39,108 nucleotides of DNA from an uncultured Rhodospirillaceae bacterium (GTDB taxonomy: Bacteria > Pseudomonadota > Alphaproteobacteria > RF32 > CAG-239): the NCBI GenBank assembly GCA_900318605.1, contig ONLJ01000011.1:1-39108 (forward strand). Reading direction: 5' to 3'. The position numbers were made by a program, and so were the translations under genes. The notes beneath the pieces were generated by a model that searched no databases, had not been told where the DNA came from, and worked only from the letters and a program-made list of their open reading frames with translations. Every line of letters begins with the position of its first letter. The stretch's first letter is position 1. This document shows positions 5,965 to 36,646 of the stretch, one piece after another.

Positions 5965-5982
5965 TGTCTTTTTCTCTGCAAA

Positions 5983-7263
5983 TTATTTTTTATTCGCCTG
6001 CCAACCTTTAGCCGCACGACTGATACAATCATCATATCTTCCGCAAAATGTTTTTGGCATAGCTATTTTTCCACACACAATTTTTTGACCGACATCTAAA
6101 ATTTCCGGAATTTCCCAAACTTTATTTTCCAACTTATAACGAGCCAAATCGGCAAAAAGACGCGCCTCCATAAAATCCCCGAAATTAGACTGTTTGATAA
6201 CCGGCTCATACGCAAATTTTTCCCGTAAGTTTGCAAAACTCTTTTCATGTTCCGGTAAAATAAAAACTTTTCCTGCTAATAACTTTTCAAAACTTTGACG
6301 AACAACCGGATTTTTCCAACCTCCTCCGAATAAAATAATTTGAGCCGGCATTTTTATATTATCAGGAAGCAGTGTCAGAGCCTGAACGGCAATATATGCA
6401 GCGGCATATTCAAATGTATGAACTACATCTTCAAACGAAATATTTTCCTGTTGCACATATTGAAAAATTCGGCTCTTATGATAATAAGCCGGATCTCCCG
6501 ATTTCGGTAAAGGAGTTTCATAAAAATCCCGTCCGCAATTAAAAATTTCTTTCAGTAATTTTTCGTTCAAATTTCCGTTTTTACCGAACATTCCGTCTTT
6601 ATCATAACTTTCGGCAGAATACCGACGAATATAATTATCGGTATATTCATTAAACGGACCGGCATCTGTACCGAGTAACGCCTTTTTCTCATTTATAATT
6701 GCAAAATTTGAAGTATTTCCGCCGTTATAATAGATACCATCACCTTCCGAAACGGAAATATGAGCATTGTGAGGTGCTACCAATGGTGCGCCGTCAAATC
6801 CTTTCATCAACGGATCAGAACGAAAATCATAAACTACCGGAATACCTGTCAAATCAGCCAACATTTGTCCCGAGCCGATTTGCAATGTATAAGCTTGTGT
6901 CCCGTCAATTTTCGCTTTGGAAGGCGGATTATGATCCAAAGTTTTACCATGAAAGCCGATTGCATCAATAGTAGATTTGTCAATATTATTTTCCCGACAC
7001 ATTTCATTTATACATTCGGCAATCTGCTTTACATAATCATCGTGAACAGATTGAAAATCCGGAATATTTTTGATTTCTTCCGCAGTTTTATTAAAAACTT
7101 CCACCCTTAAATATTCAATCCTTTCCTGCATATTTTTCGTATAAGGACGGGTAAAAGTACAAATATCGGTCATTTTATCACCGTCAAACTCAGTTAATAC
7201 CAAGTCGATGGCATCCATCGAATTTCCCGTCATATTTCCGATTATTTTATATTTTGCCATCAT
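5983..7263 (-). CDS. Anhydro-N-acetylmuramic acid kinase (AnmK)/levoglucosan kinase family protein
   Basis: The family pattern runs along the whole length: GNMTGNSMDAIDLVL, GFHGKTLDH, TLQIGSGQMLADLTGIPVVYDFRSDP...FDGAPLV, YNGGNTSN, TDAGPFNEYTDNY, YDKDGMFGKNGNLNEKLL, LPKSGDP, ILFGGGWKNP. Start set to the ATG pair 7263/7260, preceded by GAGGAG. The ORF-track start 7290 would overlap the upstream gene by 44 nt. Confidence 0.7.
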   Translation of the reverse strand: MMAKYKIIGNMTGNSMDAIDLVLTEFDGDKMTDICTFTRPYTKNMQERIEYLRVEVFNKTAEEIKNIPDFQSVHDDYVKQIAECINEMCRENNIDKSTIDAIGFHGKTLDHNPPSKAKIDGTQAYTLQIGSGQMLADLTGIPVVYDFRSDPLMKGFDGAPLVAPHNAHISVSEGDGIYYNGGNTSNFAIINEKKALLGTDAGPFNEYTDNYIRRYSAESYDKDGMFGKNGNLNEKLLKEIFNCGRDFYETPLPKSGDPAYYHKSRIFQYVQQENISFEDVVHTFEYAAAYIAVQALTLLPDNIKMPAQIILFGGGWKNPVVRQSFEKLLAGKVFILPEHEKSFANLREKFAYEPVIKQSNFGDFMEARLFADLARYKLENKVWEIPEILDVGQKIVCGKIAMPKTFCGRYDDCISRAAKGWQANKK

Positions 7264-8854
7264 ATTCTCCTCTTTTACCTTGCCATTCAATATCTTTTGT
7301 TCTTAAAATACATCTCAAAACATCATAAAATGCTTCAACCAACACACAAGGTTTCACTGCCGAGGTAACCCTTAAATCTGAAGGCCAATGCGAAGGCGGC
7401 ACAAAACATTCAATCGGAATAACCGAAACATTGCAGTCATTCAATATCCGCAAAAAAAGTTCGTAAGCAGTCTGTCGACTGTTTTTTAATCTGATAATAA
7501 TATTAGGTGATACATCATGCAATCCGAAAATATCAAAATATTTTTCCAAATTAAATTTTCTAATCATACTCAAAATCACAAAGTTCTGAAATTTTATATG
7601 TAAATCAATCAGTTCTCTCCATATTTTAAACTCTTGCAATAAAAGAGATTTATCGGATATTTTACCTTTTAATTCCGGCGGAACAGCTGCTTTTCTTTTT
7701 TCCAAAAACGCTTTCTCATAAAAAGCCGTCAATGATACCGTATAATATAAAAAAGACGGCGGAGAACCATAGGTAGTGCTTGCATGCCGATAAAATTTAT
7801 CAATAAAGCTGGCATCGGCCAAAATATGACCTAACTTAAGTCCGGCAATATTATACATTTTAGAATACGAAGCTAATACAATCAGATTTTTATATTTTAT
7901 CGGATCAAGATACGGACTGATTTTTTCATCAAACATAATCTCGTCTGCAATAAAATAAGTTCCGAATCTGGCACATTTTTCCTGTAACACCGGTAAAAAC
8001 TTTTTAATATCGGAAAAGCCACCGGGATTATGCGGAATACTGAATAAAACCACAGCGGTTTTTTCATCAATTCCGTTAATAATATTTTCCATTGAAAAGG
8101 AATAATCCCGATTTAAGAAATATATTTCCGGCTTAAAATAATACCCGATGACATCAATTATCGGAGCATACGTCGGGACAATAACAATACATTTTTTCTG
8201 TCTGTTTCCGAGTTTGGAAATAAAAGACAAAAGTGAGTTCAACCCTTCCGTACCGCCTTGAACGACTGCCGTATTTTCGGCTGAACACTTTTTTTGATTT
8301 CTGCGAAACTGCTCCAGTTGAGCAATTTTACCACGCGTATCCCTATGCCCCAAAGAATCGGAATAACCGAACCAATCATTTTCGGCTGCGACATTTAATC
8401 CCGCTTTAACAAAGGCCGGAGGAAAAAAATAATTCGGGTCATTAACTCCCCGGCTTAAATGTATCGTATTTTTTTTCCTTTTTGATTCACCATAAACATC
8501 ATAGCGGAAAAAACAATCAAAAATTTCTTTTTTTTCTTTAAGCGGAATTTTGTTGTAATTTATCTCAGTCGGTTCTTCTCGCCAATTTTTTACTTTTTCG
8601 GATATGGAAGAAATATTCCAATTTGCACGAAAATAATTTTCATTTTTTGTTTTTTTCCACTCCTTCAGATTTAACGATTTTAATTTTTTCATCAATAAAT
8701 CATATCCGACCGGAATATCCTTTGATAAACGGATATTTTTTAACAAATTTTCTTTAATACAATTATCGACCGGAAAAGACAGGTTCAGCCGTTCAATCAA
8801 TTTTTGAGATTTTTTTTCCAGTTTATGAGCCGTATTGATAAAATCCGTGTTCAT
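7247..8854 (-). CDS. PLP-dependent aminotransferase (fold type I, class I/II) with a long Lys-rich N-terminal extension
   Basis: Core motifs: VVQGGTEGLNSLL, VIVPTYAPI, SIPHNPGG, FIADEIMFDE, and the PLP-lysine motif ASYSKMYNIAGLKLG. About 170 residues precede the recognisable aminotransferase core. Start set to ATG 8854 (MNTDFINT..., AGGAAA upstream). The ORF-track start 8968 is a likely over-extension into the divergent promoter region. Confidence 0.7.
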   Translation of the reverse strand: MNTDFINTAHKLEKKSQKLIERLNLSFPVDNCIKENLLKNIRLSKDIPVGYDLLMKKLKSLNLKEWKKTKNENYFRANWNISSISEKVKNWREEPTEINYNKIPLKEKKEIFDCFFRYDVYGESKRKKNTIHLSRGVNDPNYFFPPAFVKAGLNVAAENDWFGYSDSLGHRDTRGKIAQLEQFRRNQKKCSAENTAVVQGGTEGLNSLLSFISKLGNRQKKCIVIVPTYAPIIDVIGYYFKPEIYFLNRDYSFSMENIINGIDEKTAVVLFSIPHNPGGFSDIKKFLPVLQEKCARFGTYFIADEIMFDEKISPYLDPIKYKNLIVLASYSKMYNIAGLKLGHILADASFIDKFYRHASTTYGSPPSFLYYTVSLTAFYEKAFLEKRKAAVPPELKGKISDKSLLLQEFKIWRELIDLHIKFQNFVILSMIRKFNLEKYFDIFGLHDVSPNIIIRLKNSRQTAYELFLRILNDCNVSVIPIECFVPPSHWPSDLRVTSAVKPCVLVEAFYDVLRCILRTKDIEWQGKRGEYDGKI

Positions 8855-8984
8855 TTTATTTCCTTTTTTTAGCATCATAAACTTAAAAACAAATCTTGTC
8901 CATATAATTATTTTCTTGCCATCTTTTATAAAGTCGTATATAAACATAAATGACTTCAAACATTGCATTTTAAGGAGATTTCAA

Positions 8985-10037
8985 ATGTCTTTTGCCGATT
9001 TAATCAAACCGCATAAATTAGCTCCCGGCGACAAGGTTGCGATTATTTCCCCGTCATGGGCCGGAGCAAGTGTTTATCATGACAGATATTCAGCCGGCAT
9101 AAAGCAAATGGAAGACGAGTTCGGATTGATTGCCGTTGAAGCTCCCAACTCCATGATTGATGCACGGGAAAATGCTGATAATCCGCAAAAAAGGGCAGAT
9201 GACATAAATTGGGCAGTCAAAAATAAAGAAATTAAAGCCATTATTCCGGTAATCGGCGGTGATGATGCCGTACGTCTTTTACCATTTTTGGATTATAAAG
9301 CAATCAGAAACAACCCAAAAATCTTATTGGGCTATTCTGACGGAACCGTTTTACATTTGGCATTTTTGCACGCCGGGGTAAGATCAATCTACGGTCCGGC
9401 AATCATGGCCGGCGGCTTTGCCGAAAACGGGGGGATGTTTGATTATTTCAAAAATTCGGTCAGAAAGACACTTTTTTCAACCGACATCATCGGAAAAATC
9501 GAACCGAATATGGATGGTTGGACAGACGAAGAATTACCATGGAGAGATCCCCAAAATCAGTCCATAAAAAGAAAATTAAAAAAGTCAACCGGCAATAAAG
9601 TGTTGTTGCAAAACGGAAAAGTTCAAGGACATTTGTTCGGCGGATGCATTGAAGTATTGGAAATGCTTAAAGGGACTCCGGTATGGCCGGAAAAAGAATT
9701 TTTCAACGATGCGATACTCTTTTTTGAAACTTCGGAAGAAGCTCCGTCAATTGACTATGTTGTACGGGTATTACGCAATTATGCGGCAACCGGAATTTTG
9801 CAAAAAGCAAACGGGATTATAATCGGCCGCGGCGCTTCATTGCCCGAAAATGAAATGGACAGATACGATCAGGCATTCCTTCATGTAGTTCAAAAAGAAT
9901 GTCACTTAAATATCCCTATCATATCCCAGATGGATTTCGGACATACCGATCCGATGTTTTTATTGCCTTACGGAGCAAAAGCGGAAATTGATTCTTCAAA
10001 CGGAAGTTTTTCAATTTTGGAAAGCGCCGTCATTTAG
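8985..10037 (+). CDS. S66-family serine peptidase, MccF-like (LD-carboxypeptidase family)
   Basis: Start at ATG 8985, after AAGGAG at 8972-8977. Nucleophile motif PKILLGYSDGTVLHL, acid FFETSEE, His motif MDFGHTDPMFLLPYG. The 350-aa length and an inserted Trp-containing loop (DGWTDEELPWRDPQNQSIKRKLKK) fit the MccF clade better than the ~300-aa LdcA. Confidence 0.75.
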   Translation: MSFADLIKPHKLAPGDKVAIISPSWAGASVYHDRYSAGIKQMEDEFGLIAVEAPNSMIDARENADNPQKRADDINWAVKNKEIKAIIPVIGGDDAVRLLPFLDYKAIRNNPKILLGYSDGTVLHLAFLHAGVRSIYGPAIMAGGFAENGGMFDYFKNSVRKTLFSTDIIGKIEPNMDGWTDEELPWRDPQNQSIKRKLKKSTGNKVLLQNGKVQGHLFGGCIEVLEMLKGTPVWPEKEFFNDAILFFETSEEAPSIDYVVRVLRNYAATGILQKANGIIIGRGASLPENEMDRYDQAFLHVVQKECHLNIPIISQMDFGHTDPMFLLPYGAKAEIDSSNGSFSILESAVI

Positions 10038-10053
10038 GTTTACTCTAAGAAAA

Positions 10054-10689
10054 ATGCTGAAAAATATATTATGGGATAATGACGGCACACTGATAGATAC
10101 AGCAACTCTGTTCTGCGATGCCAACAGAGTTGCTTTATTATCAAAAAACATCTTAATGGATGAAAAACTTTTTGTAAAAATCTCGCAAAAACAGGGCAAA
10201 AGTATTTTAGAATATTATGCTCTCAAAAACTCGTGGAACGAAAAACAATTAAAAGAGTTGTATTTGCTTCGACAATCAAAATATACCGAGATGTTGAAAA
10301 ACGGTGCCGCCTTGAACTATGAAGCATTTAACCTTATCGAATGCTTAAAACAAAAAGGCATAAAAAATTTTATGGTTACCGGATCGAGTAAAAATGAACT
10401 ATTGCTTGAATACTCAAAAAAAAGCGATTTATTGGCACTGTTTGACGATATCATCACCGCAGATGACTGTGACAGGCCTAAACCGCATCCGGATTCTTTG
10501 CTTCTGATAATAAAAAAATGGCACCTTTACAGCAACGATTCGGTTGTCATCGACGACCTGCCGAGAGGAATAATTGCCGCCCGAAAAGCAGGGCTGAAAG
10601 CGATTCGTTATAACCCGTTCGTAAAAAAAAGCAAATACGCAAGTTTTTCAAAACTGTTATATTCGTTGGAAAACATTGCAAACAAATAA
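10054..10689 (+). CDS. HAD-superfamily phosphatase (subfamily IA, beta-phosphoglucomutase-like)
   Basis: Start at ATG 10054, 17 nt after the upstream stop. Motif I WDNDGTLIDT (DxDxT), motif II VTGSS, motif III/IV RPKPHPD and VVIDDLPRGIIAARKAGL. Confidence 0.75.
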   Translation: MLKNILWDNDGTLIDTATLFCDANRVALLSKNILMDEKLFVKISQKQGKSILEYYALKNSWNEKQLKELYLLRQSKYTEMLKNGAALNYEAFNLIECLKQKGIKNFMVTGSSKNELLLEYSKKSDLLALFDDIITADDCDRPKPHPDSLLLIIKKWHLYSNDSVVIDDLPRGIIAARKAGLKAIRYNPFVKKSKYASFSKLLYSLENIANK

Positions 10690-10693
10690 ATGC

Positions 10694-11803
10694 CTAGATA
10701 TGCACCGACTTAAAATTATTGATTTTTGCAATATTTTCAACCGATTTTATAATTTCCTCATTTGCCGATGAAATATAAATATTTCCGGAAATCATATCTA
10801 AAAATTCAGGCAAAAAATCGCCGGTTATTACCTTAAGATTCGGAGAAATAATACCACCGCGATATTGCTGTTTCAGACAAATCAAGACTGCTTTTTCTCC
10901 CCTATTCAAAACCTCTTTCAAATATTTCCGTGTCGAACGATTATACCCGATAAACCAATGATTAAAACACGAAAGATTATTTTTATTTTTTTTACTGTAT
11001 TGAAATTGTTCGAGCATTTTCAGTGTCTTTTTTTTCATGAGTTTCAAATCATCAGGTTGCAGCGTATCTCTCCATTCTCCGACCAAACCTTTTCTGAATA
11101 TTCTCGGTTGATTTTTATCTTTGAGATATTTCATTTCCTCACTTTTTATTTTTGAAAAACGTGAATTTTCGACCGCGTTTTCAATTTCTTTTTTGGTTCG
11201 TTTGATTTTGAGACTTTTCAATAAGTTCTTTATTGTTTTCAGCGGATTGAATTTTAAGTCTTCGTATTTGACCAAACAGAGTTGATGTCCTGCCTCGTTC
11301 CCCCATTCAATCCATTTTTCAATATAAGATGTCCAATCATCAAAAGGTTTTTTACCGTAAAATCCCTTTGTATTCAAAAAATCGCTTAAACTTCCCTTCT
11401 CATCGGAAAATCCCCTGCGCCAATTATAATATGAAATAACCGCATCTCTGGCATCTCTTACCAAAAGCACGGCTGTATGAGGTTTGGCATTAACATAACT
11501 TTCGGGATAAAAATGAGTTTTAAAAAAACGAACTTCTCTCGATTTTTCTATCACATATTTTTCTTCAAGTTGTCTCCAATGCTTGCGCCACAAAGGCAAA
11601 ACGACATCGGTTTTTCTTTTATTTTCGGAAATTTTTTCCTGATATCCTTCAATATAATCAAGCCCCAATTCCAGCAATATTCCTCCCATCAAAGAACTTC
11701 CCGAACCTAAATAGCTGGCAAGTATCACATCATCGCTTTCAAGCTTTTTTATATTTTCCGTTGCCAATTTCAAATCAGCATCTTTTTCTGAACCCGACAT
11801 CAA
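10694..11803 (-). CDS. Sulfotransferase-fold (Sulfotransfer_1-like) protein with an atypical 5'-PSB loop and a ~100-aa C-terminal extension
   Basis: 3'-phosphate-binding motif VLLVRDARDAVISYYNW, catalytic-His region FFKTHFYP, YEDLKFNP, and C-terminal FRKGLVGEWRD. The PSB loop reads SYLGSGSSLMG instead of PKSGTTW. The start overlaps the stop of the upstream gene (11800-11803). Confidence 0.75.
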   Translation of the reverse strand: MMSGSEKDADLKLATENIKKLESDDVILASYLGSGSSLMGGILLELGLDYIEGYQEKISENKRKTDVVLPLWRKHWRQLEEKYVIEKSREVRFFKTHFYPESYVNAKPHTAVLLVRDARDAVISYYNWRRGFSDEKGSLSDFLNTKGFYGKKPFDDWTSYIEKWIEWGNEAGHQLCLVKYEDLKFNPLKTIKNLLKSLKIKRTKKEIENAVENSRFSKIKSEEMKYLKDKNQPRIFRKGLVGEWRDTLQPDDLKLMKKKTLKMLEQFQYSKKNKNNLSCFNHWFIGYNRSTRKYLKEVLNRGEKAVLICLKQQYRGGIISPNLKVITGDFLPEFLDMISGNIYISSANEEIIKSVENIAKINNFKSVHI

Positions 11804-12564
11804 AATACTCCGTTATAAAATTTATTGCTCTCATATTTATTTAAATCTTCAATCGTATCAACTTCAATCCAACCGCCGTGAACAATCACGCCTTTAATCG
11901 GATTTCCGGCATTTATCAGATGTTGTAAAAATGTCGTCATATACATATTTTGATATGTTTTTCCGTCATAATCGGCAAACTTATTCATACTTTTATAAAA
12001 GCTGATAATTTCAGGAAGAACATTTTTTTTAAATTTCGTTAATCCGATATATTGCGCTTGTATTCGTGCATAATCTTTCGTTTTTTTCCCGAGTTCCAAA
12101 ATATTATTTTCTTCGGAAAGTATTAAACTCTCAGCATCATCAAGCGGATTATCCATACGAAATCGCCATAATTTTTCCCAATTTTTATCCACTATTGTTG
12201 CAATATTTGCCTCGGAGTTTATCAGTTTTTCCAAGTTATCGAAAGTATAAACAATATCGGAATATGAAACAATCACATCATCATTCAACTCGTTTTCACA
12301 AGAAAACAATGTAGTAACCATATTTGATTTTTCATAATTTTCGGCAAAATATACCTTAACATTTGAACCGGATAAATGCTCTTTTAAGACATCGAATTTA
12401 TATCCGCCGATAACAACAATATCGGAAATACCGTTTTTCTTAAATCTTTCGATAATGATGTCAATCAGAGGTTTTCCGTTCAGTAATACCATACATTTCG
12501 GCACCTCATTTGTCAGAGGTCGCAAACGATTTCCCTGTCCTGCCGCTAAAATAATTGCTTTCAT
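11800..12564 (-). CDS. Nucleotidyltransferase; Cj1416-like CTP:phosphoglutamine cytidylyltransferase candidate
   Basis: 254 aa with the N-terminal NTP-transferase signature MKAIILAAGQGNRLRPLTNEVPKCMV. 4-nt overlaps at both ends. Sits in the context of the three other phosphoramidate-pathway families. Confidence 0.7.
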   Translation of the reverse strand: MKAIILAAGQGNRLRPLTNEVPKCMVLLNGKPLIDIIIERFKKNGISDIVVIGGYKFDVLKEHLSGSNVKVYFAENYEKSNMVTTLFSCENELNDDVIVSYSDIVYTFDNLEKLINSEANIATIVDKNWEKLWRFRMDNPLDDAESLILSEENNILELGKKTKDYARIQAQYIGLTKFKKNVLPEIISFYKSMNKFADYDGKTYQNMYMTTFLQHLINAGNPIKGVIVHGGWIEVDTIEDLNKYESNKFYNGVF

Positions 12565-13175
12565 TTTTCGTTTTTCCCTTCAAAAATTTTTTGGAATAAT
12601 TTTATATCTTCGAGTTGAAAAATTTTTTCTCTTTCCGGATGCCACATAACAGCATAAATGCTTTTATATTTATGATGAAACGCTTCGATAATACCGTCAA
12701 ATGAAACATAATCCGCCTCAAAATCTTCAGGAATGTTTTTAACTGCATAATTATGAAAAGAATTGACCGATCTTCTTAAATTCTCTCCGCGGATTTCGTG
12801 AGATATCGCCACATGATTTTTAACCGATTGCAATGAGCCTCCGAAAAAATTGTTTATTTGCTGCATTCCGTGGCATACCCCGATAACCGGCATATTCGCT
12901 TTGATTGCTTCTTGAAGCAATTTTTTTTCAAATGTATCTCTGATTTTATTGACCTCTTCGGAACTGACGGAAAAAAGGTCATTTCCACCGGAAAGCACGA
13001 TTCCCGATATTTCCATTTTTTGCAAAAACTGCAGAATATCATGTTTTACAGATATCGGAATCAAAAAGAATCCGCAACTTTTCATAAACTCATACCATCT
13101 CACATCGAGAGATTCTCTTATTTCCCGACCGTCATATTCACTTGATATTCTTTGAGTAATGGCAATATTTATCAT
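12561..13175 (-). CDS. Class I glutamine amidotransferase / peptidase C26; Cj1417-like gamma-glutamyl-CDP-amidate hydrolase candidate
   Basis: 204 aa with the nucleophile elbow PVIGVCHGMQQIN and a His-Glu pair in VMWHPERE. 4-nt overlaps with both neighbours. Confidence 0.7.
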   Translation of the reverse strand: MINIAITQRISSEYDGREIRESLDVRWYEFMKSCGFFLIPISVKHDILQFLQKMEISGIVLSGGNDLFSVSSEEVNKIRDTFEKKLLQEAIKANMPVIGVCHGMQQINNFFGGSLQSVKNHVAISHEIRGENLRRSVNSFHNYAVKNIPEDFEADYVSFDGIIEAFHHKYKSIYAVMWHPEREKIFQLEDIKLFQKIFEGKNEK

Positions 13176-15514
13176 CTGATTATCCTTAACTGTTTATTTA
13201 ATGCATCTATTTCGATAAATTCAGCTTTTCGCAGCTCATTAAACCGTTTTTCTCCGATACCTATTACGGCAGGAATATTTTGTTCCATACAGCGAATAGC
13301 CATATGTGAATTAGCCCCGCCGAATTGAGTAATCAGTCCGGCAATATTTTTGGTAAAAATAAAATCATATCCCGGATCAGCCGCTCTGATACAAATAATC
13401 TTATTTTGACAATCAGCATTATGTATTTCTTCTTCACAAATCACTTTAGCTTTAACTTTTCTCTGAGTTACATAATTAGGAATATTTTCATTCTGCTCAA
13501 AGCAAAAAATATCTTTTGCCGAACAGAAAACTTCCGGAAGTTTAACGTATTTGGTATAATAATAATTTATTTTACTTTGGTTGATTTTATTTTGCAAAAA
13601 CTCTTTTTTTTCTTTCACTGTTTCAAAATGTTCAAGCAAATCATAAATCGAAACGTATGATATATCTTCTTTTGAAATTGATAAAGAATGAGCATATTCC
13701 CCAATCAGGAGCAATATATGACTCAAGATTTTTGTGAATATAAATTTACTTTTATCCCGCCACAAAATACTGTCTTCTATGCAATTTAGCAAGTATTTGG
13801 CAGAAAAATTAAGACCTTCCCGTACCAATAACTCATCAATTTTTTGCAGTTGTTTTTGCGTGAAAGAATTTTTTTTCAGAGGTTTTTCAGCAATCGAACT
13901 TGATGTTGACATATTGAAATACGAATTAAAATCTTCATCATATCTCAATGAAAGAATATCATAAGAACTCGGCCGCAAATGTCCCCATTTTTCCAAAAAT
14001 TTTTTTTGAGTTATTTTTTTGTTTCTGAGTTTAACAATATCGAATTGTATTTCTTCGGAAATTATGGGAATCGAACAAATAAAATCATTGTACTGTTGCA
14101 AAGTTATAATTTTCTTTTCCAAAAACGAATCCAAAAATTGTTTTCCGATAAAAGCTGTTCTGGCAATCCCCGCAAACGGCAATGTTCCGAATTTTTTGCA
14201 CGCTTCAAGCAACTCTTTTGTTTTTTCTTCAAAACTCATTTTTTTTGCAAACAACAATTTGCAATTTTCCTGCAATTTTTGCACTGAAAGAATGTCTTTT
14301 TTATACAGCGGAACCGGATAATTAAAAACACTGTTTGTTATTTTTCTCAAAGAACTTAAAAACTCGTTGATTTGCTTTGGCGACAATAAATCGGAAAATT
14401 TTTCCTTAATATTATCGCCGGAAGTTAACGTTGCTGCCGTAAATAAAATGCTGAATTCAGCTTTATCATGCAATTCAGGATTTTTTTCCAAAGCCCTTAA
14501 ATAATAATCCGTAATCTTGCGAGATGTCTTTTTGCTTAAATCGGACGGAATAAAAGAATTAAAATCCGTTCTCACATCAATATACGGACATCCCATAAAA
14601 GAATGAAGCAAACGATAAGGTGCCACATTTTTATAACCGTAATTTTTACGCTGGATTGCCCAGATATCATCGGTTATCAGGGCTTTATATAATGACAAAG
14701 CCAACGGATTCGGACATGTACCGATCATTTCGGCAGGATTCCAATCCGTCATCATGCTGAATATATTACCTTTACCGTCCAACTTATTTTTTCTGCTGTT
14801 ATTTTTGATTTCCTGATAAAGTAATTTCAATTTATCAAAAAAAAGTTCATCTGATATTTTTTCTCTTGTAAAAGAACTCTGGACAATCAGCGGTCGAACT
14901 TGAAAAATGTACAATTTTTTTTGCTTATCAAAGGCAAATTCAATATCCAATGTATCGGAATCATAAATACGTTCTATTTCTTTTACAGCAGATAATAACG
15001 ATTTTATCGGCAACTCTCCCGACAATTTATTCAATTTAACAGACCGTGAAATAACTATGGTTTTTCCCTGTCCCGAACCGGACGTAATCGTATTTGTCTT
15101 ACCGTCATTGGTATAATTGATAATATAATAAGGCGCACCGGTTGCATGATCACGAGTAAACATAACGCCGGAGATCCAAATATCCTTCAGCATCGGTTGG
15201 ATTAAAATTTCATCTTCATCATTGCGATAATCTTTTGTGACAGCGTCAATAGCCTTAACCAAACTTTTTGAATCCGGTTCGACATTCAAAACGGATTTAT
15301 AAACACCGGCATTGGATTGCTCGGCTCGATCTTCGTTATATGCAGATGAGCGAACAATTACCTCAGATTTAAATGCCGATTTAATTTGATTTAAGAAAAA
15401 ATTTTTATTTTTTTTATATTCGGAAAACAAAAAACACAACAAAGGAAGAATTTCAAATTTTTTTGCTTTGTTTTTTAAAAAAATCAGATTTTGCGCCTTT
15501 GAATTTAAAGTCAT
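13172..15514 (-). CDS. ATP-grasp plus phosphohistidine-swivel enzyme; Cj1418-like L-glutamine kinase candidate
   Basis: 780 aa. N-terminal PPDK_N/ATP-grasp signature VIVRSSAYNEDRAEQSNAGVYKSVLNV. The PEP-utilizer mobile-domain His motif (LITQFGGANSHMAIRCMEQNIPAVIG) is at the extreme C-terminus, so there is no PEP/pyruvate-binding TIM-barrel domain as in PpsA/PPDK. Confidence 0.7.
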   Translation of the reverse strand: MTLNSKAQNLIFLKNKAKKFEILPLLCFLFSEYKKNKNFFLNQIKSAFKSEVIVRSSAYNEDRAEQSNAGVYKSVLNVEPDSKSLVKAIDAVTKDYRNDEDEILIQPMLKDIWISGVMFTRDHATGAPYYIINYTNDGKTNTITSGSGQGKTIVISRSVKLNKLSGELPIKSLLSAVKEIERIYDSDTLDIEFAFDKQKKLYIFQVRPLIVQSSFTREKISDELFFDKLKLLYQEIKNNSRKNKLDGKGNIFSMMTDWNPAEMIGTCPNPLALSLYKALITDDIWAIQRKNYGYKNVAPYRLLHSFMGCPYIDVRTDFNSFIPSDLSKKTSRKITDYYLRALEKNPELHDKAEFSILFTAATLTSGDNIKEKFSDLLSPKQINEFLSSLRKITNSVFNYPVPLYKKDILSVQKLQENCKLLFAKKMSFEEKTKELLEACKKFGTLPFAGIARTAFIGKQFLDSFLEKKIITLQQYNDFICSIPIISEEIQFDIVKLRNKKITQKKFLEKWGHLRPSSYDILSLRYDEDFNSYFNMSTSSSIAEKPLKKNSFTQKQLQKIDELLVREGLNFSAKYLLNCIEDSILWRDKSKFIFTKILSHILLLIGEYAHSLSISKEDISYVSIYDLLEHFETVKEKKEFLQNKINQSKINYYYTKYVKLPEVFCSAKDIFCFEQNENIPNYVTQRKVKAKVICEEEIHNADCQNKIICIRAADPGYDFIFTKNIAGLITQFGGANSHMAIRCMEQNIPAVIGIGEKRFNELRKAEFIEIDALNKQLRIIR

Positions 15515-16272
15515 TTTTTACATTTTCCGTTCCATGTTCTGCAAGTATATTTCACAAAAAACTCATCAGGCAGTTTTGCATAAATTTTATCGCATATTCG
15601 ATTGAATATTTTCTCTCCTTCCGGCGTAGCCAAATCCCAATATTTATTCTTAACGCTTTTCCATGCCTTTATGTAGTTTTCCAAGGTCTGCTTAAAATTA
15701 AAATCCATTTCCATATACATTATATCAGTAAAAAGATTCGAATTTTCAATAACTTCGCGTTGGTCTTGTCTTCTGATACCGCGTTCATAATCAGGAATTA
15801 TTTCTTTTATAATTGCTTCAACCTCTTTTTGAAAACCATCATTTAAATCCCGATGATTCCACAAGCAGGAAAAGACGCCGTTTTTTTTCAGGATTCTACC
15901 GGTTTCATGCAAGGCCTTATTTCTATCCAATACATTAAAACTGCTTCCGAAAGCAACTAAATCAAAAGAATCATCAGACAATGTCGTATTATAACCGTCC
16001 GCATCAATCCACGTAATTTGTTTCAAATTTTTCGTTCTTTCTTTTCCGATATCCGACATCGCTTTCGTCGGCTCGACGGCTTTTATAAAACAGGGATATT
16101 TTGCCAATAAAACGCTCAAATTACCGGTTCCGGCACCGATATCGGCAACCTCGAAATTATCAATTAAGGACAAATTCCCGTATTCAATGATGCAATCAAT
16201 AACTTTTTGCGGATAGTTCGGTCTGTATTTATAATACGGGGCTTGAAGCGTATAATCCCAATTTTCGGCCAT
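15511..16272 (-). CDS. Class I SAM-dependent methyltransferase (Cj1419/Cj1420-like candidate)
   Basis: 253 aa with SAM motif I VADIGAGTGNLSVLL and post-I/II motifs AVEPT, FDLVAFGSSFNVL, LKKNGVF. 4-nt overlap with the downstream gene and a 1-nt gap to the upstream gene. Confidence 0.75.
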   Translation of the reverse strand: MAENWDYTLQAPYYKYRPNYPQKVIDCIIEYGNLSLIDNFEVADIGAGTGNLSVLLAKYPCFIKAVEPTKAMSDIGKERTKNLKQITWIDADGYNTTLSDDSFDLVAFGSSFNVLDRNKALHETGRILKKNGVFSCLWNHRDLNDGFQKEVEAIIKEIIPDYERGIRRQDQREVIENSNLFTDIMYMEMDFNFKQTLENYIKAWKSVKNKYWDLATPEGEKIFNRICDKIYAKLPDEFFVKYTCRTWNGKCKK

Positions 16273-16273
16273 T

Positions 16274-16789
16274 TCAGCATTCCTTGACTAAGTCCAGTAT
16301 CATTTCTGCTTTTTTTTCGATATTCCCGTCATCGTTATTATCAATAGTTAAGGATATAAAAGGAGGAAAATCATACTGTTGGTTAATTCCGACAATATTT
16401 TTTGTAGCACCGATATCTTTTTTATACAACCCTTTTTTATCTCTTTGTTTAATTTTTTCGAGGTCGGCAACAATCAATATAACTTTATGGTTGGCGATAT
16501 TTTTCGCATTAAATTCATGAATTTCGGAAAACATTGATATGGTAGCGGCCACAACGTTTATCCCCTGATCCGTCAAAAGTTTGCACAGTCCGGATATTCT
16601 CTTGGCGTTTTGTAATCTTTCCGGCAAAGAATATCCAAGGTCATAATCACACATTTTTCTTACGCAATCGCCGTCAATCAGTACCCAATTTTTTGCCTTT
16701 TGTTTTAACCTATTGTATAAACTTGTAGCGATTGTTGTTTTTCCGACTCCGGAAAAACCGGTAATCCAAATCAGTTGTCCTTTTTGCAT
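16274..16789 (-). CDS. APS-kinase-fold nucleotide 3'-kinase; Cj1415-like cytidine diphosphoramidate kinase candidate
   Basis: 171 aa with P-loop WITGFSGVGKTTIA, then LIDGDCVR and the overall size of CysC-type adenylylsulfate kinases. No ATP sulfurylase gene is nearby. Confidence 0.7.
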   Translation of the reverse strand: MQKGQLIWITGFSGVGKTTIATSLYNRLKQKAKNWVLIDGDCVRKMCDYDLGYSLPERLQNAKRISGLCKLLTDQGINVVAATISMFSEIHEFNAKNIANHKVILIVADLEKIKQRDKKGLYKKDIGATKNIVGINQQYDFPPFISLTIDNNDDGNIEKKAEMILDLVKEC

Positions 16790-16842
16790 TTTACGATACC
16801 TTTTCTGATATTAAAATGACCAATACTCAAAATGACTGATGC

Positions 16843-18042
16843 TTATCGTTCCAGTCCTATTTTAATTTGCGAAACCTTCAAAGCGGCAGGTATTATCTGT
16901 TGAGGTCTGGATAGAAAAGTATATAACTGAACCAAATTTTCCGTTTCCGCAACTTTTTCCAATTTACGATTATAAATTTTATAGCCATTATCCGTAACGA
17001 TAATATTAGTCGGACAAGATAAAAATTGCGAACATTTCTGACGATTGATAACGGACACATTCGTACGGTCATCAACAGCCACGCTAAGCCCCAGACTTTT
17101 CATCCGTTCATAAGTCATATTAGCAAGCGGCTTTAATTTTTGCTGCAACGGAATCACAACATAATCAAAAGGCCTCAAACACTCCGGCAAATTGAAACCG
17201 TATTCATCTCGGTTCGCATCCATTATTGAGAACAAAGTCCTTTGTGTCCCCATACCATAGGTCAAAAACAAAGGTTTTACTTTTTTATTTTCCGAATTTG
17301 TATATTTCAATTTGACCGGTTTATCGGTTGTGTAATGATAATACATTGCTAAGCTGAGAGCTTTTGTTTTTTTGCTTTCATCAATTTGAGGAAGATACAC
17401 ATTTTCCTTTCCGGCCTCGGATAAATAAAAATATTCCGCCATAAGTTTATCGCCGTTATCCTGTTTGTAAAAAGGCAAGCGAAAAGTCGAAAAAATCGAT
17501 TGTGTTAACGAATCAAACATCTCGGAAGATTTAATCAATGAATTCCTGTCGGTATCCACGGAAAAACCTCCAAACATTTTGAATTGTTTCCCTCTTAAGA
17601 AATGCCTCGGATCAGCCATATTGCGATAAAAATTGGTTGAATAAACATATCTCAAAGGCAGTTGAGAGTGCGACAAGTTATTATCCGACAAAACCTTAAT
17701 AAACAAAGGTTCAGGAGTCATCATTAAATGAAATCCCTCCATTTTTCCGGACAGATACATAATTTTGCTTCTGAATTGTTGCCCGATTTCCTGACCCTGT
17801 TCCAAAACATTGTTATCAATAATCGTCGGCGGTTCGATTTGTTCCATACCATAATTGTCAGCTATATCCATCATCGTATTTTCCATATTTCTGACAATCT
17901 TTATACCCAGAGGCGTTAAAAGAGGAATGGCATTAGTATCAAAACAAAACAAAATATCGTTCAACAAATTTTCCGTAGGCTGTTGATTAAACGGCTCACG
18001 CAGATTATAGTTGTTAATATTGATTTGTTTAGATAAAAACAT
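16843..18042 (-). CDS. Class IIa aminoacyl-tRNA synthetase paralogue (ProRS-like catalytic core plus anticodon-binding-like domain, no editing domain)
   Basis: 399 aa. LLTPLGIKIVRNMENTMMDIADNYGMEQIEPPTI (motif 1 region). HLMMTPEPLF...LSHSQLPLRYVYSTNFYRNMADPRHFLRGKQFKMFGGFSV (motif 2 with the Arg retained). LTYGMGTQRTLFSIMD (motif 3, G.G..R). C-terminal FDYVVIPL...GLSVAVDDR resembles a class IIa anticodon-binding domain. Far too divergent from canonical bacterial ProRS to be the housekeeping enzyme. Confidence 0.65.
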   Translation of the reverse strand: MFLSKQININNYNLREPFNQQPTENLLNDILFCFDTNAIPLLTPLGIKIVRNMENTMMDIADNYGMEQIEPPTIIDNNVLEQGQEIGQQFRSKIMYLSGKMEGFHLMMTPEPLFIKVLSDNNLSHSQLPLRYVYSTNFYRNMADPRHFLRGKQFKMFGGFSVDTDRNSLIKSSEMFDSLTQSIFSTFRLPFYKQDNGDKLMAEYFYLSEAGKENVYLPQIDESKKTKALSLAMYYHYTTDKPVKLKYTNSENKKVKPLFLTYGMGTQRTLFSIMDANRDEYGFNLPECLRPFDYVVIPLQQKLKPLANMTYERMKSLGLSVAVDDRTNVSVINRQKCSQFLSCPTNIIVTDNGYKIYNRKLEKVAETENLVQLYTFLSRPQQIIPAALKVSQIKIGLER

Positions 18043-18053
18043 TACTTACATCC

Positions 18054-20525
18054 TTAATCGCGGGTTTTCCTGCACAGATTTATCAATCTCGGCAACAAAG
18101 TTTTCTTATCACGAATAACAATGACTTTAACGTCTTCTCCGAGTGAACTTCTGTAAGACTGAATCTTTTGATCACGGCTTTCGGAAATAGTTCTTTCGAT
18201 ATCTTCATTTGAAGCCTCGGCATCAACCGACAACTCGCACTTCTTTTTACCGTTAACGGTTAACGGAATAGCGATTTCGTTAGTTCTGAAGTCAATTAAA
18301 GAGCTTTCGATTTCCGGCCACTTATCGGTAAATATCGAACGTTTTTGCGCAAAGCATTCTCTCCATAACGTATCAGCCGTATGCGGTGTGAATACCCCGA
18401 TAACCTTAAGAAATTCTTTCATTGCCAAACGCTGTACTTTTCCCGATTCGCTGTCTTCATTGATTTTATCTCTGTTTTTAGCGAGTACGTTCGCAAATTT
18501 ATATATTTTAGCAATCGCCACGTGAAAAGATTGATTGTCCTCTATTTCGCGACGCACATCTTTGGCTGTGTGATGAAGTTCCGCCAAAAGGAACTTATCT
18601 TTCTGACTTAAGTTTTCGGCAACAATCGATTCATCTTCACGCGGTTTAACGGTTCTGTACATACCAACCAACGAACCCAAAAATTTCTTTTTGGCCTGCA
18701 ATCCCGTTTCACTCCATTCCGTATCCAACTGGAACGGCTTATCCGACAACAAATATAAACGCAAAGCATCGGCACCGTATTTTTCAATCATTTCATCAGG
18801 ACGAACAACATTTCCCAAAGACTTTGACATCTTATGTCCGCCCAGTTTGACAATACCGTTATCCAAAAAGTTCTTAACCGGCTCTTTAACCGGAGTCAAA
18901 CCGAGTTTATAAAGAAAATGAGACATAAAACGCAGATAAATCATATGCTGATTGGCATGTTCCAAACCGCCGACATAATAATCAATCGGCATCCATTTTT
19001 TTGCTTTTTGCGGGTTCCAAGGTTGTTCATCATTATGCGGATCCAAAAAACGCCATACATACCACGCCGAACACATAAAGGTATCCAACGTATCCGTTTC
19101 TCGTGTACATATTTCTCCGGTTTGCGGATTTTTATAATTCAAAAATGACTCGTCAACGGTCAGCGGCGATCTACCTTTAGCCAACTCAAAATTCATCTCT
19201 TTCGGCAGTCTTACCGGCAACTCATCTTCTTGAACCGGCTTAAAGTTGCCGCTGCTATCCTTTACAAACGGAATCGGACATCCCCAAAAACGCTGTCTTG
19301 AAATCGACCAATCTTTAAGCTTGTACCTTATTTTTCGCTCGCCGATATTTTTCTTTTCCATATAATCCGAGATAAACTCTCTTGCCTGATTACTTGTTTT
19401 TCCGTTCAATAGCCAACTGTGAATCATCTTATCTTCACCATCAACCAACTTAGGCAAATAATCCAAATTCCGCTTTTGCGCAAATGCGGCATCTTTTTCA
19501 TTTATTGCCGGAATACACGCAACGATTCCCGTACCTTCCGTCGGCATAATATGATCGGATACAAAGACCGGGATCTGTTTTCTGGTCAACGGGTGGATAA
19601 CATAACTTCCGGTAAAGACAGATGATAAATCCGCTTGAGAAACCCTTTCGGTCGAACTTTTCAACAAAGCTTTTTTGATATATTCATCCATTGCATCTTT
19701 TTGAGACGGCACCGTTAATAAATCTGCCAAATCATGTTCCGGAGCAACATAAAGTGCGGAAATACCGAAAACAAATTCCGGATTTTGAATAAAGGTTGTC
19801 ATGTTGAACTTTTGCTCATCATCGGAAAAATGCAAATCGACTCCTTCCATTCTCCCAATCCAGTTACGTTGCATTGCTATAGCCTGAGAAGACCAATTAA
19901 GTTCATCCAATCCGTTCCACAAATCTTCGGCATAATCGGTAATTCTGACAAACCACTGTTCCATTTTTTTTCTTTGAATGGGAGCACCGCTTCTCCAACC
20001 TTTTCCGTCAATAACCTGCTCATTGGCCAAAACAGTTTTATCGACCGGATCCCAATTTACCCACTCATCGGCCCGATATAAAAGATTATTTTCGTAAAGC
20101 TTCAAAATCAGCCACTGTGTCCATTTATAATACTCCGGAGAAGCCGTAACGATTTCTCTGTCCAAATCAAAGGAAAAACCCATCGGTCCGATTTGTTCGT
20201 CTCGCATTTTTTCAATATTTTTTTGAGTCCATTTTTCCGGATGAACATTATTCTTAATTGCGGCATTTTCGGCAGGTAGTCCGAAAGCATCCCAACCGAT
20301 GGGATGTAAAACATCTTTTCCCATAAAACGTTCCAAACGCGCCAACGTATCGGAAATTGAATACACCAGTGCGTGTCCCATGTGCGCATTTCCAGAAGGA
20401 TATGGAAACATACCGAGAATATATGATTTTTGTCCCGATGTTTCACGAGTCGTATCGACTCCTTCTTCTTTCCATTTTCTTTGAATTTCTTCTTCTTGCT
20501 GCCTTATATTCATAGCTTCAGCCAT
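18054..20525 (-). CDS. leuS: Leucyl-tRNA synthetase (bacterial type, atypical/reduced)
   Basis: 823 aa with MFPYPSGNAHMGH (HIGH), GWDAFGLPAENAAIKNN, VLANEQVIDG, RDW-type [42 protein letters not shown] (KMSKS) and YGADALRLYLL. Confidence 0.93.
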   Translation of the reverse strand: MAEAMNIRQQEEEIQRKWKEEGVDTTRETSGQKSYILGMFPYPSGNAHMGHALVYSISDTLARLERFMGKDVLHPIGWDAFGLPAENAAIKNNVHPEKWTQKNIEKMRDEQIGPMGFSFDLDREIVTASPEYYKWTQWLILKLYENNLLYRADEWVNWDPVDKTVLANEQVIDGKGWRSGAPIQRKKMEQWFVRITDYAEDLWNGLDELNWSSQAIAMQRNWIGRMEGVDLHFSDDEQKFNMTTFIQNPEFVFGISALYVAPEHDLADLLTVPSQKDAMDEYIKKALLKSSTERVSQADLSSVFTGSYVIHPLTRKQIPVFVSDHIMPTEGTGIVACIPAINEKDAAFAQKRNLDYLPKLVDGEDKMIHSWLLNGKTSNQAREFISDYMEKKNIGERKIRYKLKDWSISRQRFWGCPIPFVKDSSGNFKPVQEDELPVRLPKEMNFELAKGRSPLTVDESFLNYKNPQTGEICTRETDTLDTFMCSAWYVWRFLDPHNDEQPWNPQKAKKWMPIDYYVGGLEHANQHMIYLRFMSHFLYKLGLTPVKEPVKNFLDNGIVKLGGHKMSKSLGNVVRPDEMIEKYGADALRLYLLSDKPFQLDTEWSETGLQAKKKFLGSLVGMYRTVKPREDESIVAENLSQKDKFLLAELHHTAKDVRREIEDNQSFHVAIAKIYKFANVLAKNRDKINEDSESGKVQRLAMKEFLKVIGVFTPHTADTLWRECFAQKRSIFTDKWPEIESSLIDFRTNEIAIPLTVNGKKKCELSVDAEASNEDIERTISESRDQKIQSYRSSLGEDVKVIVIRDKKTLLPRLINLCRKTRD

Positions 20526-36536: not shown

Positions 36537-36646
36537 AGCTCAATAGCTGGTTTTTGATTTAGAATCAGAATTGTATTATGTTGAAAAAATGGTTTGCTAA
36601 AATTAGGATATATGGCAACTCATTGCTTTTGTTTATGGAGGAAGAT

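Follow-up and report, generated by a model that had tools for sequence, protein, structure and literature searches.

A conserved candidate gene cluster for an N-aminoacyl phosphoramidate, probably an aminoacyl-adenylate mimic, in an uncultured rumen/gut alphaproteobacterium

Enzymes of the Cj1415-1418 type have a single characterised role, i.e., the formation of the capsular O-methyl phosphoramidate (MeOPN) of Campylobacter jejuni (PMC6429109; PMC3907429). The window analysed here, i.e., the complete stretch of 39,108 nucleotides (contig ONLJ01000011.1 of assembly GCA_900318605.1, uncultured Rhodospirillaceae bacterium; nearest genome, a sheep-rumen alphaproteobacterial metagenome-assembled genome, MAG), harbours genes for enzymes of these families together with leuS (leucyl-tRNA synthetase, LeuRS), a class II aminoacyl-tRNA synthetase (aaRS) paralogue of prolyl-tRNA synthetase (ProRS) fold and an S66 serine peptidase of the MccF clade, which raises the question of what product such a combination may serve. 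An earlier note made from the DNA sequence had proposed an aminoacyl-adenylate mimic. This reading is supported by the present comparison, namely by the co-conservation of the genes in the absence of capsule genes and by the homologues of AgnA, AgnB1, AgnB2 and the S66 peptidase of the agrocin 84 locus that are shared among clusters of the paralogue family. The region 7247-20525 (Table 1) is accordingly regarded, with rather more confidence than doubt, as a cluster serving both the synthesis of a small N-aminoacyl phosphoramidate and the protection of the producer from it. The compound would probably carry an O-methyl group, would probably be linked to a nucleoside and would mimic an aminoacyl-adenylate, with LeuRS as likely target.

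Loci for comparison were gathered via the paralogue (genome scan, 12-sequence profile) and, independently, via the sulfotransferase-fold protein. The comparison covers 22 paralogue-bearing cluster loci, those with the glutamine-kinase donor/transfer module being termed Type P. Close relatives of the paralogue (at least 72 % identity) are rare, with only 13 among 5.8 billion clusters searched. The contigs of four relatives (paralogue 72–73 % identical) are syntenic from leuS to the sulfotransferase-fold gene and also contain the HAD/S66 pair and the gene for a pyridoxal phosphate (PLP)-dependent enzyme, with differing outer flanks. An exhaustive HMMER search for the paralogue family yielded 669 matches, about 100 of them stand-alone proteins of 380–400 aa with 25–40 % identity. 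The paralogue, S66 peptidase, methyltransferase, four donor enzymes and sulfotransferase-fold protein are encoded together, in varying gene order, by at least four distinct lineages, and this gene content was found in rumen, marine and other Alphaproteobacteria. Locus L021 (TARA ocean) encodes LeuRS, the paralogue, sulfotransferase-fold protein, S66 peptidase, methyltransferase, glutamine kinase, nucleotidyltransferase, glutamine-amidotransferase (GATase)-fold hydrolase, APS-kinase-like kinase and a CysQ-family protein; the same set is rearranged in L022 and lacks LeuRS in L015 and L020. L012 (Krasilnikovia) and L014 (Streptomyces) share one co-linear operon with the paralogue and a partial set, comprising the paralogue, an NDK/ClpS-like protein, an M16 peptidase, a GNAT protein, a nucleotidyltransferase, a three-gene ABC exporter and the succession APS-kinase-like kinase, methyltransferase and glutamine kinase. 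All four donor genes occur together in eight loci beyond the window. Neither the window nor the approximately 12 cassette-bearing loci contain glycosyltransferase, sugar-nucleotide or capsule-export genes.

Since synteny extends over the entire unit in four relatives with differing flanks, and the same content recurs in other orders in distant loci, the gene arrangement is not due to chance. The earlier note had asked whether the aaRS paralogue and the sulfotransferase-fold, MccF-like and Cj1415-1418-type genes recur together, which is the case. The distribution that it had named as speaking against its proposal, i.e., the cassette solely in capsule or lipopolysaccharide loci and the paralogue elsewhere, is the opposite of the one found, with no capsule or glycosyltransferase genes at any locus.

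The following route is proposed: (i) from glutamine, ATP and CTP, the PPDK-like kinase, nucleotidyltransferase, GATase-fold hydrolase and APS-kinase-like kinase would form 3'-phospho-cytidine-5'-diphosphoramidate, (ii) the sulfotransferase-fold enzyme would pass the terminal H2N-PO2 group on to a hydroxyl, the most plausible acceptor being a nucleoside 5'-OH, with release of cytidine 3',5'-bisphosphate, (iii) the methyltransferase would methylate the phosphoramidate oxygen, (iv) the paralogue would activate an alpha-amino acid with ATP and acylate the P-NH2 nitrogen, and (v) the MccF-clade S66 peptidase would cleave the aminoacyl-N bond, protecting the producer or processing the product, with the LeuRS of the operon serving as insensitive target and/or biosynthetic partner. 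The PLP enzyme and the HAD phosphatase may provide the acceptor or the amino acid, or modify one of them. In sister clusters, steps (i) and (ii) would be replaced by an AgnA-like enzyme with an AsnRS core. Step (i) is supported by family assignment and the established Cj1415-1418 chemistry, while the later steps are inferred. Precedents are known from aaRS-like enzymes and resistance aaRS copies, which acylate the NH2 of sulfamoyl or sulfonamide groups (PMC12945691).

The paralogue consists of a catalytic core without the INS editing domain and an anticodon-binding-like domain. Its AlphaFold (AF2) model, calculated from 44 family members (pLDDT 91.8, pTM 0.89), retrieved exclusively ProRS among the top 50 Foldseek matches (TM 0.75–0.77), the best being the INS-less enzyme of R. 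palustris, and the match spans both the catalytic and the anticodon-binding domains. Across the 44 members, the alpha-amino-binding glutamate (E111) of the TPE (TxE) motif is invariant, and conservation reaches at least 90 % for the arginines of motif 2 (R140) and motif 3 (R268). F154 is aligned with the phenylalanine that stacks on adenine. Judged from sequence and model, these features would fit an ATP-dependent amino-acid-activating enzyme, and the paralogue is proposed as the ligase forming the N-acyl bond on the phosphoramidate nitrogen. ProRS models are also its best NCBIfam matches, yet with 80 bits as compared to the proS (PRK09194) cut-off of 558. Assignment as a canonical ProRS was rejected on the basis of this score, the lost motif 2 glutamate and the lack of an INS domain.

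The same product class could arise if the amino acid were drawn from an aminoacyl-tRNA, with LeuRS making Leu-tRNA(Leu), or transferring leucine in the manner of SbzA, and the paralogue being an AcmF-like transferase. AcmF (class II aaRS-like) and SbzA (an extra IleRS) act in this way on sulfamoyl or sulfonamide NH2 (PMC12945691). Moreover, leuS lies immediately upstream of the paralogue gene (11-nt gap in the window, 1-nt overlap in L001 and L002), and the paralogue possesses an anticodon-binding-like domain modelled with high confidence as well as a motif 2 devoid of the conserved glutamate. However, the ascamycin transferase AcmF has lost its ATP site and uses Ala-tRNA (PMC12945691), whereas the paralogue family retains the motif 2/3 arginines, the adenine-stacking phenylalanine and the TxE glutamate, and about 40 % of the paralogue loci have no LeuRS nearby. 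The tRNA-dependent route is considered unlikely, and ATP-dependent activation by the paralogue itself is preferred.

LeuRS adjoins the paralogue in at least six lineages (window clade, Micavibrio, L021, L022, Xenorhabdus plasmid, Pacearchaeota and Patescibacteria), as does AgnB2 on pAgK84. Since the loci were retrieved through other genes, this linkage was not selected for and cannot be chance. The window LeuRS is a full-length bacterial-type enzyme with editing domain, HIGH and KMSKS motifs that lacks the leucine-specific (LS) insertion domain. It aligns with AgnB2 in one stretch (residues 11–781, 36 % identity), and AgnB2 likewise has no LS domain (PMC5059758). This domain is missing from all ten bacterial cluster-linked LeuRS, including the Xenorhabdus copy with its otherwise 51 % identity to E. 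coli LeuRS. The window enzyme belongs to an LS-less group (43–55 % identity) with members in contexts resembling biosynthetic gene clusters, i.e., in Nocardia with S66 and non-ribosomal peptide synthetase (NRPS) genes, and in L026. LS-domain loss as a marker of immunity LeuRS was rejected, because LS-less enzymes of the same group also reside in housekeeping-like contexts (L024, L027). The product of leuS is a candidate for a resistant target and/or a supplier of activated leucine.

Three further observations concern LeuRS. Following the HIGH motif, the window clade reads HMGHALVY as compared to HMGHVRNY in E. coli, AgnB2 and the Xenorhabdus copy (Micavibrio: HVRVY); this change beside the motif is unusual. 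Archaeal-type LeuRS without the CP1 editing domain (668–670 aa) are encoded immediately upstream of the paralogue in MAGs of Pacearchaeota and Patescibacteria, i.e., reduced-genome episymbiont lineages (L007 7993-9999; L010 3625-5637), and a LeuRS fragment is present in L006 (10-504). In Nocardia gipuzkoensis (L025 10001-22538), a window-type LS-less LeuRS (46 % identical) is encoded beside an AMP-binding enzyme, an S66 peptidase, a NUDIX hydrolase, a P450 and an NRPS, probably representing another LeuRS-linked biosynthetic cluster of different chemistry.

Sister loci, in which the paralogue and S66 genes stand beside those for an AsnRS-like "asparagine synthetase A" core (without anticodon-binding domain) and a methyltransferase, were found in Micavibrio, other Alphaproteobacteria, a gut Rickettsiales MAG, Pacearchaeota, Woesearchaeota and Patescibacteria. 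The latter two genes correspond to the pair agnA-agnB1 of pAgK84 (AgnA homologues 37–42 %, AgnB1 homologues 40–45 % identical). AgnA has been proposed to form the P-N bond of agrocin 84, and AgnB2 is the TM84-resistant LeuRS (Travin et al. 2021 review, PMC8323819). An AgnA-like gene occurs in nine sister loci and on pAgK84, and is present neither in the window nor in any Type-P locus. Across the 22 cluster loci it is mutually exclusive with the five-gene module for glutamine kinase, nucleotidyltransferase, GATase-fold hydrolase, APS-kinase-like kinase and sulfotransferase-fold protein; the paralogue, the S66 peptidase and often LeuRS are common to both architectures. Each architecture has its own methyltransferase subfamily, encoded always next to its P-N module. 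The AgnA-like enzyme and the five-gene module are read as two alternative solutions to the phosphoramidate-making step. On pAgK84, the order agnA, agnB1, agnB2 (LeuRS), agnC0, agnC1 is followed further along by an S66 gene (40331-41389), the product of which is 29–30 % identical to that of the window (E 8e-45). The homologues of AgnA, AgnB1, AgnB2 and S66 keep the same local order on the plasmid. A megaplasmid of Xenorhabdus bovienii carries a block for AsnA-like protein, methyltransferase, S66 peptidase, nucleoside phosphorylase, LeuRS, a paralogue homologue (30 % identity, E 2e-47) and an exporter of the major facilitator superfamily.

The S66 peptidase scores 339 bits with B. anthracis BA3275 (about 55 % identical), 117–124 bits with MccF and 25–76 bits with LdcA enzymes, and its triad of Ser (GYSD), Glu and His (GHTDP) is conserved. 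No function report was found for BA3275, the closest solved relative. MccF cleaves the amide of aminoacyl-phosphoramidates (PMC8323819). The S66 gene is present in 16 of the 22 paralogue-bearing loci, and the window enzyme is proposed to hydrolyse the aminoacyl-N bond for self-protection or processing. Peptidoglycan recycling by S66, HAD and AnmK proteins (LdcA/MupP/AnmK) was rejected, the S66 peptidase being nearer to MccF than to LdcA and co-occurring with the paralogue at the above frequency; the HAD phosphatase reaches 31 bits with the MupP model (cut-off 359).

The pathway might instead lead to a non-antibiotic metabolite, or to tRNA or protein modified with an aminoacyl-phosphoramidate, the adjacency of LeuRS then reflecting tRNA(Leu) or leucine as shared substrate. 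A chromosomal cluster among housekeeping genes, with a leuS that may be the only copy and no exporter in the window version, would agree with such a role, as would the occurrence in reduced-genome DPANN and Patescibacteria. In contrast, the clusters occur sporadically and in part on plasmids, with transposase or recombinase flanks, exporters are encoded in the Xenorhabdus, pAgK84 and actinomycete versions, the kinship with a proven antibiotic locus is direct, and MccF-clade hydrolases are known as immunity enzymes. A role of this kind is held to be quite improbable.

With respect to the donor module, the PPDK-like protein matches NF004508/PRK05849, which we take to represent the Cj1418 family, over its full length and well beyond the cut-off of 501 bits (Table 1). 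The best NCBIfam match of the GATase-fold protein is the "gamma-glutamyl-CDP-amidate hydrolase" (NF045546), the next family reaching 59 bits. The APS-kinase-like protein exceeds the PRK05541 cut-off (127 bits), its gene always accompanies other donor genes, and it is proposed to 3'-phosphorylate cytidine diphosphoramidate. According to Taylor and Raushel, as cited in PMC6429109, the product of the Cj1415-type kinase is 3'-phospho-cytidine-5'-diphosphoramidate, an isostere of 3'-phosphoadenosine-5'-phosphosulfate (PAPS). The best solved relative of the nucleotidyltransferase is the CTP:phosphocholine cytidylyltransferase 1jyk, and no solved Cj1416 or Cj1417 structures were among the PDB matches.

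In view of the sole characterised role of these enzymes and the lack of an exporter in the window cluster, the cassette could serve to attach (O-methyl) phosphoramidate to a glycan or lipid of the cell surface, the paralogue, S66 and leuS genes being unrelated neighbours. The earlier note had treated such a decoration as an equally live alternative, which is not borne out: the genes for glycosyl transfer, sugar-nucleotide formation and capsule export expected to surround it are those missing from the window and the cassette-bearing loci, the cassette co-varies with paralogue, S66 and LeuRS genes across shuffled orders, and in the sister clusters its place is taken by an AgnA-like enzyme. Surface decoration is rated as very unlikely.

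The window methyltransferase is 36–57 % identical to those of L020, L021 and L022, which always adjoin donor genes, as compared to a local identity of only about 26–29 % with AgnB1-type methyltransferases. The idea of one methyltransferase shared by both cluster types was rejected, as pairwise analysis yielded two distinct subfamilies, each with its own P-N module.

The sulfotransferase-fold protein has a C-terminal extension of about 100 aa. Its K-T/A-H catalytic motif (K95, H97) and the 3'-phosphate-binding motifs R116...S124 and R237-K238-G239 are kept in 10/10 or 9/10 of the aligned family members. The 5'-phosphosulfate-binding (PSB) loop reads LGSGSSL instead of PKxGTTW, with loss of the catalytic lysine. 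The family is narrow (32 matches), and every examined homologue with at least 37 % identity is encoded next to donor genes. No ATP sulfurylase is encoded at any locus. L021 and L022 carry a gene of the CysQ/inositol-phosphatase family, in place of which the window clade and L020 have the HAD phosphatase; the presence of CysQ-family genes agrees with the release of a 3',5'-bisphosphate nucleotide. Because the 3'-phosphate-binding motifs are retained, and considering the donor-gene context, the lack of ATP sulfurylase and the CysQ or HAD phosphatases, the protein is probably the transferase for 3'-phospho-CDP-amidate, i.e., a candidate phosphoramidyl transferase using a PAPS-like donor. No link between Cj1421/1422 and the sulfotransferase fold was found in the searchable literature.

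A homologue of 28 % identity (L023 8535-10942) marks the boundary of this family. Its gene stands with those for an APS kinase and a Type-P-like methyltransferase, without glutamine kinase, beside phenazine genes (phzA/B, D, E, F, G), and the locus may serve a sulfated or otherwise modified phenazine. Ordinary PAPS-dependent sulfation in the window, i.e., a sulfated or sulfamoylated, ascamycin-like product with the phosphoramidate genes serving otherwise, is suggested by the Pfam placement of both proteins in sulfation families and by the L023 locus, and is hardly credible given the lack of ATP sulfurylase, the constant company of the other three donor genes (homologues of at least 37 % identity) and the lost PSB lysine.

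The cluster extends to the left of position 8985, up to the gene of the PLP enzyme. This enzyme matches PseP (8k3h) far better than the next structure (38 bits). An N-terminal extension is present, but the N-terminal region is much shorter than that of PseP. The PLP lysine is kept. Of the residues contacting beta-NAD in PseP, F413, Y418 and D462 (GYSDSLG motif) are kept, F457 is replaced by W and R466 by H, and Y699 is not conserved (poorly aligned region). PseP and SbzP join S-adenosylmethionine (SAM) to beta-NAD on the route to the IleRS inhibitor SB-203208 (PMC13351049). The PLP gene adjoins the cluster in L002, L003 and L028, the HAD phosphatase is conserved in L003 and L028, and L020 (11659-13797) encodes a single 712-aa protein in which an SbzP/PseP-like PLP domain is fused to a HAD phosphatase domain. 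From the adjacency in relatives and this fusion, both genes are concluded to belong to the cluster. The PLP enzyme is a candidate for a tailoring or precursor enzyme that uses SAM and a nucleotide, and the HAD phosphatase may dephosphorylate an intermediate or the 3',5'-bisphosphate arising as by-product. The earlier note's statement that exporter, glycosyltransferase and nucleoside-modifying enzyme are lacking holds for an exporter within the cluster and for glycosyltransferases, and has to be amended by this candidate nucleotide-handling enzyme.

Directly downstream of the PLP gene, the window encodes an AnmK-family kinase (long open reading frame, ORF, of 435 aa; probable start ATG 7263 or 7260) and a xylose-isomerase-like TIM-barrel protein (5182-7290, minus strand). 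As these two genes are absent from all related loci, they were kept out of the cluster.

Gene order, gaps, overlaps, coordinates and domain calls given in the earlier note were all reproduced by the ORF map and by Pfam and NCBIfam searches of the window proteins (Table 1). On the minus strand, leuS is the first gene of an operon and is followed after an 11-nt gap by the paralogue gene and, after a further 53 nt, by six genes from the APS-kinase-like to the sulfotransferase-fold gene, joined by a 1-nt gap (kinase/methyltransferase) and 4-nt overlaps. The S66 and HAD genes converge on the end of this operon, the stops of the HAD (10689) and sulfotransferase-fold (10694) genes being 4 nt apart. 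The S66 gene starts with ATG at 8985, preceded by an AAGGAG site, and the HAD gene with ATG at 10054. Scans for Rfam families, tRNAs and promoters/terminators yielded nothing informative.

Table 1. Genes of the cluster in the window and the family matches on which their assignment is based
Product	Position	Strand	Family match
LeuRS (leuS), 823 aa	18054-20525	-	TIGR00396, 785 bits (NCBIfam)
ProRS-fold class II aaRS paralogue, 399 aa	16843-18042	-	PF00587 (tRNA-synt_2b), 37 bits
APS-kinase-family kinase, Cj1415-type	16274-16789	-	PF01583, 107 bits; PRK05541, 158 bits
Class I SAM methyltransferase, Type-P subfamily	15511-16272	-	PF08241
PPDK-like three-domain kinase, Cj1418-type L-glutamine kinase	13172-15514	-	NF004508/PRK05849, 862 bits; PPDK_N and PEP-utilizers domains
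Class I glutamine-amidotransferase-fold hydrolase, Cj1417-type	12561-13175	-	NF045546, 173 bits, E 8.6e-51
Nucleotidyltransferase, Cj1416-type by context	11800-12564	-	PF00483
Sulfotransferase-fold protein, 369 aa	10694-11803	-	PF00685 (Sulfotransfer_1), 97 bits
HAD-IA phosphatase	10054-10689	+	PF13419, 83 bits
S66 serine peptidase, MccF clade, 350 aa	8985-10037	+	PF02016 and PF17676
SbzP/PseP-like PLP-dependent enzyme	7247-8878	-	122 bits to PseP 8k3h

The flanks consist of ordinary chromosomal genes (gyrB, secA, ppiC, nrdDG, a Trp/Tyr-type aaRS gene, clpB, a TolC-like gene, genes for glycogen phosphorylase and adhE), which are those of an anaerobic Gram-negative bacterium. The window also contains two PilS/bundlin-like type IVb pilin genes located 27 kb apart (513-1439 and 28626-29102, both minus strand) and, at 36578-38918 (plus strand), ORFs of 612 and 169 aa without Pfam match.

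Some related clusters contain additional genes. In LeuRS-less Type-P clusters, the paralogue gene is directly followed by that for a 414-aa protein with a C-terminal DnaJ domain (L015 11140-12384, L020 3876-5120, L011 11140-12384). An extra gene for a protein of 216–227 aa lies between the sulfotransferase-fold and HAD/S66 genes in L002 (12180-12863), L028 (11541-12221) and L020 (11000-11650), with a weak NUDIX match in L020; it is absent from the window. NUDIX genes are also present on pAgK84 and at the Nocardia locus.

Several points weigh against the proposed N-aminoacyl phosphoramidate cluster. Within the donor module, the GATase-fold protein stays below the NF045546 equivalog cut-off of 250 bits, and the nucleotidyltransferase was assigned as CTP:phosphoglutamine cytidylyltransferase of the Cj1416 type from context. 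The methyltransferase is likewise proposed from context to O-methylate the phosphoramidate, and the Type-P and AgnB1-type enzymes are analogous rather than orthologous in sequence. In the paralogue, motif 2 reads YRNM as compared to FRDE in ProRS, the usual glutamate being lost. A remote ProRS-like structure of AgnC1 has been published from HHpred and Phyre2 predictions (PMC8323819), but homology to the paralogue was not found: hmmsearch with the paralogue profile gave no match and hhalign a probability of 1.6 %, phmmer and transitive tests through Streptomyces and Xenorhabdus members showed none, and AgnC1 and the Xenorhabdus member share a weak local BLAST match only. The parallel between both proteins draws on position, size and the published fold prediction. 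As for LeuRS, none of the AgnB2 determinants T42, A102 and KQSKS is present in the window enzyme, which keeps KMSKS, and leuS may be the only, ordinary copy, as LS-less LeuRS of the same group occur in the housekeeping-like contexts mentioned above. The cluster of the window contains no exporter gene, a TolC-like gene of doubtful membership lying about 9 kb away.

A wider reading, which appears possible though short of probable, joins these lines: an undescribed, widespread family of aaRS-inhibitor clusters in rumen/gut and marine Alphaproteobacteria, Actinobacteria, Xenorhabdus, DPANN archaea and Patescibacteria would be built around a core of ProRS-fold ligase and MccF-clade hydrolase with two interchangeable P-N routes, the sulfotransferase-fold enzyme of the window would be a new kind of phosphoramidyl transferase with the PAPS isostere 3'-phospho-CDP-amidate as donor, and the product a new O-methyl N-leucyl-type phosphoramidate nucleoside of a gut commensal.

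Natural aminoacyl-adenylate mimics (agrocin 84, microcin C, albomycin, ascamycin, phosmidosine) are rare and potent inhibitors of tRNA synthetases. An uncultured rumen/gut bacterium would have, in the window, a compact candidate route of 11 genes to a compound of this type, and the Cj1415-1418 phosphoramidate pathway, known from capsule decoration, would gain a place in the biosynthesis of small molecules, with the sulfotransferase-fold enzyme nominated as the missing phosphoramidyl transferase. To our knowledge, the biosynthesis of agrocin 84 is still unsolved; the either/or relationship with AgnA represents genetic evidence on which agn genes build the toxic N-acyl phosphoramidate. If the wider reading is true, the same logic would assign roles to AgnB1, AgnC1 and AgnC5 and would identify the long-missing phosmidosine cluster. 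Concrete candidate clusters for phosmidosine-type compounds are obtained as well. In view of the LeuRS-linked versions in DPANN and Patescibacteria, this chemistry could also matter for host-symbiont interactions.

Agrocin 84 (agn, pAgK84, Agrobacterium/Rhizobium rhizogenes K84), an N-acyl phosphoramidate mimic of Leu-AMP, belongs to the product class predicted for the window. Both loci contain (i) an LS-less LeuRS gene in the operon, directly upstream of that for a protein of about 400 aa with ProRS-like fold (for AgnC1, by published prediction), (ii) an S66 peptidase gene and (iii) an adjacent SAM methyltransferase gene. In the window, however, AgnA is replaced by the five-gene glutamine-kinase/cytidylyl/hydrolase/3'-kinase/sulfotransferase-fold module, and counterparts of the tailoring genes agnC2-C7, of agnD-F (opine-like uptake moiety) and of the exporter AgnG are lacking. 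As compared to MeOPN formation in C. jejuni, the same four enzyme families (family-level assignment) are encoded contiguously with a SAM methyltransferase, but outside of any capsule locus, with a putative transferase of sulfotransferase fold and linked to paralogue, LeuRS and MccF-like hydrolase. With microcin C, the window shares an S66 peptidase of the MccF rather than the LdcA clade, with Ser-Glu-His triad, but it encodes neither an MccA peptide nor an MccB adenylyltransferase.

An APS kinase and a sulfotransferase participate in the acm pathway as well. In the pathways of ascamycin (acm) and altemicidin/SB-203208 (sbz), aminoacyl-adenylate mimics are formed through acylation of an X-NH2 group (sulfamoyl/sulfonamide) by aaRS-like enzymes, and the clusters contain an additional aaRS gene (PMC12945691). 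An SbzP/PseP-like PLP enzyme is common to sbz and the window, though the latter keeps only part of the NAD-contact residues of PseP. The window differs from both in its phosphoramidate instead of sulfur chemistry and in a ProRS-fold paralogue with ATP-binding residues, which AcmF lacks.

Phosmidosine of Streptomyces durhamensis, an N-prolyl O-methyl phosphoramidate of a nucleoside, likewise represents the predicted product class, although its amino acid is prolyl and the window cluster is tied to LeuRS, not ProRS. An operon on a plasmid of Streptomyces sp. NBC_01707 (NZ_CP109191.1, 269178-277320; L029 11179-19321) encodes an AgnA-like protein, a methyltransferase, an FAD-binding subunit, a molybdopterin hydroxylase, a paralogue-family member (278 bits to the family profile) and an S66 peptidase. 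We infer a candidate phosmidosine-type cluster, since its parts would match phosphoramidate, O-methyl, 8-oxoadenine and N-prolyl moieties one-for-one. This operon serves as an independent check on the roles assigned to the enzymes.

In the searchable literature, which does not cover most subscription journals, no description was found of (i) a phosmidosine gene cluster, (ii) natural-product clusters containing a glutamine kinase, (iii) the combination of the Cj1415-1418 module with a sulfotransferase-fold transferase, or (iv) the either/or relationship with AgnA and the breadth of the paralogue family. A published survey of agn-like clusters with AgnC1 as bait had retrieved only Ensifer and actinomycete examples (PMC8323819). 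The earlier note's claim that no cluster of this architecture has been described therefore stands for the exact combination, and falls for its relatives, as the agn locus and agn-like clusters have been described (PMC8323819). Aminoacyl-adenylate-mimic clusters with linked aaRS and MccF-type hydrolase are in general already known, and the cluster of the window is a real, conserved and apparently undescribed one of this kind.

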